DNA of 64,000 nucleotides from Escherichia coli. Lineage in GTDB: Bacteria; Pseudomonadota; Gammaproteobacteria; Enterobacterales; Enterobacteriaceae. Below the pieces are notes generated by a model. The model was not told where the DNA came from, searched no databases, and saw nothing but the letters and a program-made list of their open reading frames with translations. Location of the stretch: the NCBI RefSeq assembly GCF_009931435.1, contig NZ_CP043415.1; one strand, 5' to 3'. This document shows, piece by piece, positions 31,456 through 33,460 of this stretch (within the stretch, counting starts at the first letter, position 1; each line of letters opens with the position of its first letter). A program made the position numbers and the translations under genes.

Positions 31456-31671
31456 TTATATATCGTCTATGCTTTCAGCTTCCTCCTTTACTAAAGATGC
31501 ATTATAAAAGTCTGGAAAACGATTGAGATGATCTTTTAGTCTAATGAACACCTCATTAGTTTTTGTTCTTCCGCTACGATCTCTAGCTGCTAAAAGTTTC
31601 TGATTGGTTGTCTCATCCAGTATTAATAAGACTTTGTTACCCGGTGCGGCTCTGGTTCTCCCTCTGCTCAC
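31456..31671 (-). CDS. traY: TraY (short R100-like form, RHH), GTG start
   Basis: 71 aa basic ORF between traJ and traA; GTG start preceded by GGAGGA. Confidence 0.7.
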   Translation of the reverse strand: MSRGRTRAAPGNKVLLILDETTNQKLLAARDRSGRTKTNEVFIRLKDHLNRFPDFYNASLVKEEAESIDDI

Positions 31672-31806
31672 GTTTCCTCCGCATAATTACTTGAGATAAT
31701 AAAATATAATCATATAAATCATCTTTAATGAAAACAAAAATAGAGTAAATTATATTAACAAAAACGGGAACCAATGGTTCCCGCAAAGTAACAATAAGTT
31801 AACAGC

Positions 31807-32454
31807 CTATCTTCCCAATATTTCTTTTACTTTAGCATATAAAGGAAGTATCTTTTCCGTTCTAATCATTTCATCCAACCAGAGATCTCTAGAACTAAAT
31901 CCATGTCGTTTAAATAATTTCATGGTTTTCTTCTTTGATTTAGACACAGTGATGTTCATCTTTGCTGATGAATAATGATGGCTAAACCCTATCAGATATG
32001 GCTCAATGCCTACATATTCATCAGATAGTACAATTAATTCATTGGTGTATTTAGACACAACAAACGATGACAGATTATCATTTGCTACCCAAATAAATCT
32101 CCAGATAAAGAAATAGCCGCATGGTGTGATAACACTTTCTATGATCACACTCCATAACATATTATTAAGTAATATGTCATTATTACAATTTACACCATAA
32201 ACTGAAGAGCATGATTCAATCTCTGCTCTGGATAACTGTAATTTACATTCCAACGTTAAACTATCAAACCATTCATCACATGAATTAAATGACGATCTGA
32301 TAAGTTTTTCAAAGCGGTTATTTTCCTGAATAAAAGAACCATCCTCGAAGCGGACACATACTGGATATTTTAAAAACGAAATAGCCTCTCCAAGACTATG
32401 AGGGAAATGCAATTGACTGATGAGTGCTCTTTCTCTACGATCCATCGCACACAT
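31807..32454 (-). CDS. traJ: TraJ transfer activator (non-F allele); track ORF extends to 32532 but ATG at 32454 with RBS at 32461-32466 is the likely start
   Basis: Position between traM and traY; start lies under the finP stem-loop I complement. Confidence 0.7.
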
Positions 32455-32524
32455 AGGAACCTCCTCTAAGGATTCTATGGACAGTCGATGCAGGGAGTGG
32501 CTGCTCCCTGCATCGGCGATTTTC
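32448..32524 (+). ncRNA. finP: FinP antisense RNA (candidate)
   Basis: Two stem-loops antisense to the traJ RBS/start: CATAGGAA...TTCTATG, then CGATGCAGGGAG-TGGCTG-CTCCCTGCATCG followed by GCGATTTT. Confidence 0.45.
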
Positions 32525-32644
32525 AGTTTCAATTTTTAACGTGGCATTAACCACATAATCAATATACTAATTATTCTGATTATTGTCATCAGTTTGAACC
32601 ATAAAAAACCATGATATTTGAACAAAGTCAAAATTTATTTCACT

Positions 32645-33028
32645 TTATTCATCATCATTTTTTGGAAAGAACCTTTCCATCTCAACCGACACCTTCTCTC
32701 TGATATCTTCAACCATATTGGCATATTCAAACTTCGGTTTTCCGGAAACATGAGGGCTAAGAGACTCAATACCTAAAATCTTTGCCACCGTTGACTGCGT
32801 TTTTACAACACACTCAAGAAGAAGTTTATTAAACTCTGCCTGATTAAACGCTGATTCTTTTCGTTCCATCTGCGCTTCATAAACTCGCAATCCTAACTCA
32901 AGCAACATAGAGGCAATACTTGAATAACTAACATCTTTCTCTTTTGCTCCCTCTGCTCGCCTTTGCACAGCAATAGCATTTATTTTTTCAGACACATGGT
33001 CATTAACATAAACCTGAATTTTGGCCAT
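32645..33028 (-). CDS. traM: TraM relaxosome accessory protein
   Basis: 127 aa MAKIQVYVNDHVSEKINAIAVQRR...; adjacent to oriT. Confidence 0.93.
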   Translation of the reverse strand: MAKIQVYVNDHVSEKINAIAVQRRAEGAKEKDVSYSSIASMLLELGLRVYEAQMERKESAFNQAEFNKLLLECVVKTQSTVAKILGIESLSPHVSGKPKFEYANMVEDIREKVSVEMERFFPKNDDE

Positions 33029-33039
33029 AACACACCTTA

Positions 33040-33460
33040 TTCACCTTCCTAAACAAACAATATATTTTCGTGCTCTCTATTCTGCACCTTATGACGAATC
33101 ACCATTAGATTCATCATACTAAAATCACGATTCACTATACGAATCAGCAATCATCAAATGACGAATCTAATATAGATTCACGCGCCAAGTAAATAGATGT
33201 TTTCAAAAAAAATAGTCATTACTGAATCATTGACAATTCGTGATAGATTCACTATCGAATCTATCACGAATCTCTGCAATATAATTCAAAATTATATAAT
33301 ATAAATATAGTTCATTAATTACATGATTTAAAACACAAATCAGCAAAAACTTGTTTTTGCGTGGGGTGTGGTGCTTTTGGTGGTGAGAACCACCAACCTG
33401 TTGAGCCTTTTTGTGGAGTGGGTTAAATTATTTACGGATAAAGTCACCAGAGGTGGAAAA
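33040..33460 (+). other. oriT: AT-rich region with GAATC/GATTC repeats (candidate TraM/TraY/IHF sites), inverted repeat GCAAAAACTTGTTTTTGC at 33343-33360, F-type nic sequence GTGGGGTGT|GGTGCT near 33369/33370
   Basis: Sequence read directly; matches remembered F oriT nic region; lies between traM and orf169. Confidence 0.85.

Follow-up and report, generated by a model that had tools for sequence, protein, structure and literature searches.

Does an F-type nic sequence lying beside a short TraY and a TraJ unlike that of F mark a recombinant transfer-control module, or do all of these elements belong to a single plasmid lineage? An earlier note on the 64,000-nucleotide stretch of E. coli DNA analyzed here (henceforth the window) had argued for recombination within the traM-traJ-traY control module, which it placed at 31456-33380, and these limits frame the cassette well, beginning at the final base of the traY stop codon and ending shortly past nic. 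We compared the window directly with F (NC_002483) and R100 (NC_002134), taking pSLT, together with published statements on R1, as a stand-in for R1. The region is very probably a standard F-like (MOBF12A, MPF-F) oriT and transfer-control cassette that carries a catalogued combination of alleles and was assembled by recombination. It comprises oriT, traM, finP/traJ, the traY promoter and traY, with the tra operon on the minus strand, and the order orf169 - nic - TraM sites - traM - finP/traJ - traY promoter - traY - traA follows the layout of F, R100 and pSLT.

Borders of the cassette and its F-type nic

Gene order and architecture are shared with F, and so is most of the sequence around the cassette. 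Identity to F is 99.0-99.6% over 7570-31423 (traA to traD 99-99.6%), 99.6% from traA onward and 100% over 33338-33460. Between these flanks, 99-100% F in sequence, the F version is replaced from ~33337, about 32 bp beyond nic, to ~31400, in the first traA codons: positions 32436-32990 show 80.8% identity to F, and 31424-32435 gave no nucleotide alignment to F, R100 or pSLT. Identity to F gives way to unalignable sequence within a few tens of bases both at ~31400-31405 and at ~33337, and at the left border mismatches to F are dense over 31405-31440 and sparse past that stretch. Farther along the operon, F carries a vapBC insert between traD and traI that is absent from the window, where traD abuts traI as it does in R100. 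The features at and beyond the borders are:

31048..31413, minus strand: traA, propilin, identical in sequence to Swiss-Prot PIL2_ECOLX
33361..33375, plus strand: oriT nic, F type, GTGGGGTGT|GGTGCT, cleaved between 33369 and 33370
2303..7573, minus strand: traI, relaxase/helicase of 1756 aa, partner of the F-type nic
33278..33337, minus strand: putative IHFa/sbyC/sbyA zone, located as in the F oriT, R100-like in sequence

The F-type nic reported previously is present, as is the F-like TraI of 1756 aa. The 15-mer GTGGGGTGTGGTGCT occurs once in the window (33361-33375, plus strand), with none expected by chance, and 33338-33400 is identical to F at 63 of 63 positions and to R100 at 61, the R100 nic differing by two bases. 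TraI residues 1-239, the relaxase domain, are 100% identical to F and include Q193/R201 as in F, whereas R100 has R193/Q201. The assignment of residues 193 and 201 to specificity reportedly goes back to Harley and Schildbach in 2003. By analogy, TraI with these F-type specificity residues would nick the F-type nic. On nic and TraI the window thus groups with F, and it lacks the combination that defines the R100 group, namely the R100 nic with TraI R193/Q201, the R100 TraJ (NF010272) and the R100 TraM.

Immediately inside the border the affinity changes. The zone at 33278-33337 shows 80% identity to R100 as against 43% to F, and its position relative to nic is that of the IHF and TraY sites on the F oriT map (bioRxiv 10.1101/2024.12.19.629322). 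IHF and the short TraY of the R100 family, with its single ribbon-helix-helix, would be expected to bind there. For this as for every other binding site in the cassette, we infer the assignment from position and analogy; the literature searched yielded no binding, promoter or transfer experiments on this allele set.

TraM and its binding sites

The TraM sites, the two parts of traM and the partner of TraM in the coupling step are arranged as follows:

33223..33272, minus strand: sbmC-like TraM site with four GANTC motifs and a perfect 15-nt inverted repeat at 33236-33271
33091..33180, minus strand: sbmA/sbmB-like TraM sites, three 23-nt repeats at 33-34 bp spacing
32855..33028, minus strand: traM codons 1-58, ribbon-helix-helix DNA-binding domain with K3/Q5/Y7, of the GANTC-reading type
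32645..32854, minus strand: traM codons 59-127, tetramerisation and TraD-binding domain, F/R100 type
7573..9771, minus strand: traD, coupling protein, partner of the TraM C-domain

Ten GANTC motifs lie between nic and traM, compared with 1.1 +/- 1.0 in shuffled sequences and none in F, and the same region contains none of the F motifs A(G/C)CG(C/G)T. Each of the 23-nt repeats has two GANTC motifs 12 bp apart, and the sbmC-like site, at +97 to +146 from nic, matches the location of sbmC in F. The residues of TraM that determine specificity have been described, and R1 TraM reads GANTC through K3/Q5/Y7 (PMC3159463). The window TraM is predicted to do likewise, its K3/Q5/Y7 ribbon binding the three GANTC clusters. 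By contrast, N5 is found in F TraM, which reads A(G/C)CG(C/G)T, and in pSLT TraM, and R100 differs both in its TraM N-domain (R3/I5) and in its sites.

TraM as a whole matches Pfam Tra_M (PF05261) and NF010267, and its two domains have different nearest relatives. The N-domain is 94.8% identical at the amino acid level and 82% at the nucleotide level to that of a Klebsiella IncFII(K)-type plasmid (NZ_CP069862), as against 65-69% amino acid identity to F, R100 and pSLT. Conversely, the C-domain is 92-94% identical to F and R100 (92% for F) and 59% identical to the Klebsiella protein. Identity at third codon positions also changes partner at the linker, and the crossover joint lies at about 32839-32870. 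By sequence comparison, traM is a domain chimera, with a Klebsiella-type N-domain and an F/R100-type C-domain. The exchange involving the N-domain would be old, in whichever direction it went, since its nucleotide identity is only 82%. The Klebsiella plasmid also has an sbm region with the same GANTC layout and common strings such as GAATCtatattaGATTCgt, but its TraJ is only about 29% identical, its TraY and nic region differ and its structural tra genes belong to another lineage. At the other end of the protein, the F-type TraM C-domain would pass the relaxosome to an F-type TraD tail; the final 60 residues of TraD are those of F.

FinP, TraJ and TraY

The regulatory genes and elements downstream of traM, together with finO, are:

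32448..32523, plus strand: FinP antisense RNA, two stem-loops and a U tail (Rfam RF00107, 99 bits)
32449..32556, minus strand: traJ 5' UTR, the FinP target, including ribosome-binding site and start codon (Rfam RF00243, 115.5 bits)
3..515, minus strand: finO, FinP chaperone, first 171 codons (the window edge cuts it), uninterrupted, unlike in F
31807..32454, minus strand: traJ, 215 aa, activator of the traY promoter, class NF010273 (PRK13719.1-2)
31788..31804, minus strand: putative ArcA tandem boxes TGTTAACTTATTGTTAC, consensus TGTTAA(N5)TGTTAA
31765..31783, minus strand: perfect 19-bp palindrome CGGGAACCAtTGGTTCCCG, candidate TraJ binding site (jbs)
31456..31671, minus strand: traY, 71 aa, GTG start, single ribbon-helix-helix (short form), R100 family

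As in other F-like regions, FinP (MFE -39.3 kcal/mol, z = -7.1) overlaps the traJ leader, ribosome-binding site and start codon. Both of its loops are private, differing from those of F, R100 and pSLT, although the SLI loop has the same length as in pSLT. FinP, aided by a FinO whose gene is open here and broken by IS3 in F, would pair with the traJ leader and block TraJ synthesis. TraJ resembles its pSLT counterpart over the first ~14 residues. Since the stretch at 32417-32513 shares ~90% identity with pSLT, we considered an extra breakpoint just inside traJ and rejected it as unproven: FinP pairing constrains this stretch in all alleles, and TraJ overall is mildly nearer the R1/pSLT class (68 bits).

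The claim that TraJ is unlike that of F holds, and TraJ is distant from R100 and pSLT as well. TraJ starts with the ATG at 32454, the 241-aa TTG frame in the mechanical list of reading frames being an artefact. Global identity was computed on a 217-aa form with its start two codons farther upstream (32460) and amounts to 23.6% for F, 21.1% for R100 and 25.9% for pSLT. By comparison, the TraJ proteins of R1 and pSLT are 73% identical and interchangeable (PMC7303359). The protein matches NF010273 over positions 1-215 of 215 with 507.4 bits (cutoff 445), as against 35 bits on the F-type model NF010275 and 68 bits on NF010274 of the R1/pSLT group (cutoff 349), and it is identical to UniProt B1VC84_ECOLX; R100 TraJ, unrelated in sequence, belongs to NF010272. 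A search with the window TraJ found no match in Pfam, where PF27685 is listed for TraJ relatives, and pSLT TraJ had no NCBIfam match at 1e-20. Ten relatives were returned by a search for homologous proteins, none of them bearing a classical plasmid name. On these comparisons traJ forms a class of its own relative to F, R100 and pSLT. A division of TraJ into nine subgroups has been put forward (Koraimann 2018, as relayed in PMC7303359).

Despite this distance, the window protein is homologous to classical TraJ. Its N-domain matches the PAS structure of F TraJ (4KQD) by sequence (E = 1.3e-6), and a predicted structure (pLDDT 75) matches 4KQD with a TM score of 0.76 and also matches full-length PAS-HTH regulators. 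Conserved columns in the TraJ alignment include the C-terminal HTH, and TraJ thus has the N-terminal PAS-like dimerisation domain and C-terminal HTH of the family. The pED208/IncFV group, by contrast, has a non-homologous 'TraJ-V' regulator and no FinO (PMC5102898), and the window, with its classical-type TraJ and its finO, falls outside that group.

Upstream of traY, the consensus and geometry of the putative ArcA boxes resemble those of R1 P_Y, in which ArcA boxes are followed at similar spacing by an inverted-repeat TraJ site (PMC7303359), and ArcA probably binds at 31788-31804. The palindrome sits at the position of the allele-specific inverted repeats of R100, pSLT/R1 and pF8704-2_1. A plasmid with a 72% related traJ has a related palindrome, and the repeats of R100 and pSLT are unrelated to it. 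The traY-promoter core downstream of the inverted repeat is similar in R100. A consensus promoter scan did not flag the -35/-10 elements of P_Y. A TraJ dimer, formed through the PAS domain and carrying the HTH, would bind the 19-bp palindrome near the ArcA boxes and activate the traY-traI operon; for TraJ- and ArcA-dependent activation of the promoter, the indications are these sequence elements, the putative boxes and the palindrome.

TraY is the short form, as had been noted: 71 aa on the minus strand (31671-31456), with a GTG start 5 nt after GGAGG and a match to Pfam PF05509. It scores 140 bits on NF010300 (cutoff 114), the NCBIfam equivalog that R100 TraY also matches, compared with 48.5 bits on the F-type model NF010303 and 72 bits on NF010302 of the R1/pSLT group (cutoff 147). 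Amino acid identity is 67% to R100 and 28% to F, whose TraY is a 131-aa tandem ribbon-helix-helix protein. The window therefore joins the R100 group on TraY, and lies outside the R1/pSLT group on TraJ and TraY and outside the F group on TraJ, TraY and TraM with its sites. Each protein of the cassette is paired with its matching DNA or RNA site.

Origin and spread of the haplotype

The combination is not peculiar to the window but is a fixed haplotype of more than 200 plasmids. The whole cassette recurs at 99-100% identity and with the same borders in pJIE186-2 (NC_020271), pSTEC2018_607-c (NZ_CP075700) and some 200 further IncF plasmids of E. coli. The module is at least 99% identical in 204 PLSDB records, and the 2,061-bp segment that contains it (31400-33460) recurs at 100% identity in no fewer than five plasmids that were sequenced independently and whose hosts include cattle and humans. 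Of 5,426 complete E. coli genomes, 262 have the haplotype, which is annotated in hundreds of records and whose alleles are covered by dedicated NCBI models. P307 or ColB4 may carry the same allele set; a literature search on P307 yielded nothing that bears on this.

This prevalence bears on the earlier test of the mosaic, a match of all three regulators to one reference lineage: they match a single haplotype (that of pJIE186-2, for example), but not F, R100 or pSLT. The regulators and their sites could then form one coherent, co-inherited lineage that looks mosaic only because F is the reference, a reading favored by their joint travel in more than 200 plasmids and by the existence of NCBI models for this TraJ class. 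We consider it unlikely, as the domains of traM are themselves discordant, and traY with the sby zone is of the R100 family while traJ is not. In addition, this traJ occurs at 95% identity or more in 274 PLSDB records and this sbm/traM N-domain segment in 226, an excess of about 48, and therefore some traJ carriers hold another sbm/traM N-domain. In pP136-4, this traJ/traY follows sbm sites and a TraM N-domain of the F type, and in pF8704-2_1 a relative of this traJ is combined with the oriT/traM/traY of R100; the crossovers fall at traM codons ~55-63.

Slightly less probable still is divergence in place from an F-like ancestor, through diversifying selection on the specificity determinants with the flanks conserved. 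In its favor, rapid divergence of specificity determinants is known from F-like plasmids, identity among TraJ alleles is about 20-25%, and parts of the cassette (the traM C-domain, the finP stems) have stayed conserved. Gradual change, however, sits poorly with a fall from 99.6-100% identity to unalignable sequence within tens of bases at both borders, with adjoining patches closest to different relatives (F, R100, the Klebsiella type, or none), with the partner switch at third codon positions in traM, and with the other combinations of the sub-cassettes in pP136-4 and pF8704-2_1. A recent plasmid-specific event or an assembly chimera, which the sharp junctions of F-like flanks with non-F sequence might suggest, is refuted for practical purposes by the recurrence of the same sequence in those plasmids, records and genomes.

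The recombination proposed earlier is thus supported by the abrupt borders, the traM chimera and the differing relatives. Homologous recombination would have put the cassette together through exchanges in short segments that all alleles conserve: the nic region, the linker between the TraM domains, the stems of finP with the traJ leader, the traY-promoter core and the traA leader. Each specificity determinant would therefore move with its own binding site. These events are older than this plasmid, since the haplotype is common to hundreds of plasmids.

The mosaic is real but ordinary, and already known. Descriptions of allele-specific sets of oriT, traM, finP, traJ and traY, and of mosaic IncF backbones, go back to the 1980s and 1990s, and allele-specific transfer control is textbook material. 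The discovery value of the locus is small, and it is useful as a worked example of a protein encoded beside its site and of a change of traM ancestry at the interdomain linker. The odds seem to us evenly balanced on a broader proposal: that the haplotype is a fully orthogonal, experimentally uncharacterised specificity group, that crossovers recur in nature at the conserved traM linker (codons ~55-63), and that relaxosomes are built from interchangeable protein-plus-site cassettes. If so, the plasmid would escape FinP repression and TraJ/TraM cross-talk from co-resident F, R100 and R1 types and still be nicked by an F-type TraI. The pairing of protein and site predicts which plasmids cross-repress, cross-activate or mobilise each other, which bears on how IncF virulence and resistance plasmids with this cassette spread, such as those of ST131 and aerobactin plasmids. 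Relative to pSTEC2018_607-c, the window has an additional IS in its leading region.

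Borders of a non-F control cassette

The minus strand of the window encodes an F-type transfer region, with the following features:

33461-33970, +: orf169, lytic transglycosylase gene
33361-33375, +: nic, GTGGGGTGT|GGTGCT (single copy in the window; 0 expected by chance)
next after nic in tra orientation: AT-rich zone
between AT-rich zone and traM: clusters of GANTC motifs
33028-32645, -: traM
32448-32523, +: FinP RNA, antisense to the traJ leader (Rfam 99 bits for FinP, 115.5 bits for traJ leader; fold z = -7.1)
32454-31807, -: traJ, 215 aa
between traJ and traY: traY promoter region
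31671-31456, -: traY, 71 aa, GTG start 5 nt 3' of GGAGG
31413-31048, -: traA
2303-7573: TraI, 1756 aa

BLAST comparison with F, R100 and pSLT (a stand-in for R1) gave 99.0-99.6% identity to F over 7570-31423 (traD to traA), no nucleotide similarity to F over 31424-32435 (traY, traJ), 80.8% over 32436-32990 (finP and most of traM), no F alignment over 32991-33325, and 94.8% over 33326-37541. Alignment to F places the right border of the cassette at ~33337. The left border lies at 31400-31405, within the first traA codons; mismatches with F are dense at 31405-31440 and amount to ~1/kb or fewer beyond. Protein identities to F, R100 and pSLT, respectively, are 82%, 80% and 72% for TraM, 24%, 21% and 26% for TraJ, 28%, 67% and 35% for TraY, and 98%, 86% and 88% for TraA; TraL, TraE and TraK reach 99.5-100%, 94-99% and 79-94%.

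An earlier note had claimed an F-type nic and an F-like TraI of 1756 aa beside a short, GTG-started TraY and a TraJ unlike that of F, and all four hold: the 63 bp around nic match F at 63/63 positions, TraI has this length and equals F over residues 1-239, TraY has 71 codons from a GTG, and TraJ shares the 24% noted with F. Its proposal of a mosaic control module was also right and can be made sharper. By sequence comparison, the entire cassette from nic+32 to the traA start is non-F and is in turn built of patches, each specificity protein being linked to its own putative site.

Specificity proteins and their putative sites

TraI has Q193/R201 in the window and R193/Q201 in R100; these residues set F versus R100 nic specificity, as reported by Harley and Schildbach in 2003. 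Next to the F-type nic, the stretch 33278-33337 shares 80% identity with R100 and 43% with F; in F oriT this place is occupied by IHFa/sbyC/sbyA. The short TraY scores above the curated cutoff of NCBIfam NF010300 (140 vs 114 bits), the same model that R100 TraY matches.

Between nic and traM lie 10 GANTC motifs (1.1 +/- 1.0 in shuffles), mostly at intervals of 11-12 or 21-22 bp, with pairs inside each site at 11-12 bp. The motifs form three repeats of 23 nt within 33091-33180, plus a site at 33236-33271 that is an inverted repeat. In F, by contrast, this region lacks GANTC and contains three A(G/C)CG(C/G)T motifs. The latter are read by F TraM (N5), and GANTC pairs 12 bp apart by K3/Q5/Y7 TraM proteins (R1, pED208; PMC3159463). 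The window TraM begins MAKIQVY and thus has K3/Q5/Y7. Over codons 1-58, traM shares 94.8% aa and 82% nt identity with a Klebsiella IncFII-type plasmid (NZ_CP069862), versus 65-69% aa identity with F/R100/pSLT; over codons 59-124, aa identity is 92-94% with F/R100 and 59% with the Klebsiella protein. The partner switches at ~32839-32870, in a conserved ...EAQMERKESAFNQ... stretch, and traM is a domain chimera. The TraD tail, the required binding partner of the TraM C-domain, is identical to F. Such a natural chimera, a modest point, parallels the engineered F/pED208 chimeras of PMC3159463; a literature search found no published description of one.

TraJ exceeds the cutoff of NCBI's dedicated equivalog NF010273 (507 vs 445 bits), whereas F TraJ matches NF010275 and R100 TraJ NF010272. 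Its N-domain matches 4KQD, the PAS structure of F TraJ, in both sequence and predicted fold (TM 0.76), and the full-length predicted structure resembles PAS-HTH regulators. ArcA-like boxes (TGTTAACTTATTGTTAC) sit three bases past the traJ stop, and 4 bases beyond them comes a perfect palindrome, CGGGAACCAtTGGTTCCCG (31765-31783). At this position R100, pSLT/R1 and pF8704-2_1 carry inverted repeats that differ from one plasmid to the next; a plasmid with a 72% related traJ has a related palindrome, AAGGGAACCAtCGGTTCCCTT. In R1, TraJ acts at the inverted repeat upstream of traY, which alone determines TraJ specificity (PMC7303359). We infer the binding and regulatory roles of the cassette parts from homology and position.

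FinP keeps the family stems, and both loops are unlike those of F, R100 and pSLT. Plasmid pP136-4, whose finP/traJ allele is otherwise 98% identical, has CCTTAACGGAGG in the FinP SLI loop/traJ ribosome-binding region versus CCTTAGAGGAGG in the window; the 2 nt that differ fall in the loop and Shine-Dalgarno region and could affect how FinP pairs or how TraJ is translated. The finO gene (3-515, -) is open over 171 codons to the window edge and ~90% identical to R100 FinO. Since it lacks the IS3 interruption of F finO, FinOP repression is probably functional and the plasmid probably repressed for transfer.

Probable recombination and distribution of the module

Other plasmids combine these parts differently. 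In pP136-4, the sbm region and TraM N-domain are F-type, while the traM C-domain, finP, traJ, promoter and traY are those of the window (96-100% identity). pF8704-2_1 has R100 oriT sites, traM and traY (traY 100% identical) with a 72% relative of the window traJ. Its nic (8531-8540) is F-type, CACACCCCAC versus CACACACTAC in R100, despite R100-type TraM sites, traM and traY, so that nic type, too, reassorts independently of the accessory-protein sites. At >=95% identity, 274 PLSDB records hold the window traJ and 226 its sbm/traM N-domain, implying another TraM N-domain beside traJ in some carriers. The cassette might instead have diverged in place, a reading opposed by the abrupt borders, the discordance of nearest relatives and these alternative combinations. 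The same three features favour homologous recombination with crossovers at conserved joints, in line with the earlier note's suggestion. The events are old, because nucleotide identity to the Klebsiella-type N-domain is only 82%; they are common to hundreds of plasmids, so none of this is unique to the window.

In PLSDB, 204 records match the 2,061-bp module (31400-33460) at 99% identity or more; several plasmids, with cattle and human hosts among the sources, match it at 100%. Of 5,426 complete E. coli genomes, 262 contain it at a query coverage of at least 80%. Named carriers include pJIE186-2 (ST131) and pSTEC2018_607-c; UniProt holds the exact cassette proteins (B1VC83, B1VC84, B1VC85), and the propilin sequence is PIL2_ECOLX. 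The finding is already known, in kind and in instance, and allele-specific transfer control is established. Boyd et al. reportedly described mosaic F-like plasmids in 1996. TraJ subgroups were already defined, according to a passage of PMC7303359 citing Koraimann 2018, and regulatory genes co-occur less than structural genes (PMC5102898).

Other features of the plasmid

As in R100, traD (732 aa; F 717) directly adjoins traI at 7573; the ~700-bp vapB/vapC-annotated segment between them in F is missing. A long near-perfect hairpin (34216-34269; AUAAUAUAAGUAAAGCCCCG...CGGGGCUUUACUUAUAUUAU) lies between orf169 and the DUF932 gene. Its Rfam matches are weak and sub-threshold, fall on both strands (mir-1302, His_leader, RsmY), and the hairpin most likely serves as a bidirectional terminator. 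The DUF932 (orf273-like) gene at 34479-35168 (-), beside orf169, retains only a 229-aa TTG ORF, versus 822 nt in F and R100; its copy in the near-identical pSTEC2018_607-c (NZ_CP075700) has an internal stop and is annotated as a pseudogene. A repeat of ~450-650 bp occurs three times in the leading region (35515-36144, 42885-43529, 46232-46784; 82-96% mutual identity), each time adjoining small features annotated 'incomplete hypothetical' in that plasmid; the copies may correspond to the single-strand promoter/initiation elements that recur in IncF leading regions.

Relative to pSTEC2018_607-c, elsewhere 99.8-99.9% identical, a ~1.95-kb insertion (38830-40779), which may be IS100-like, splits a ParB/RepB/Spo0J-like leading-region gene. 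The flanking alignments share an 8-bp overlap, consistent with target-site duplication, and the two plus-strand ORFs of the insertion (38916-39938, 340 aa; 39935-40717, 260 aa) have an IS21-family layout. By the annotation of pSTEC2018_607-c, the minus strand also encodes the group II intron reverse transcriptase/maturase ltrA (51784-53508, 574 aa). The same annotation places the aerobactin receptor gene iutA at 62100-63986 (-), with iuc genes after it where the window ends, so that the carrier is an aerobactin-type virulence IncF plasmid.
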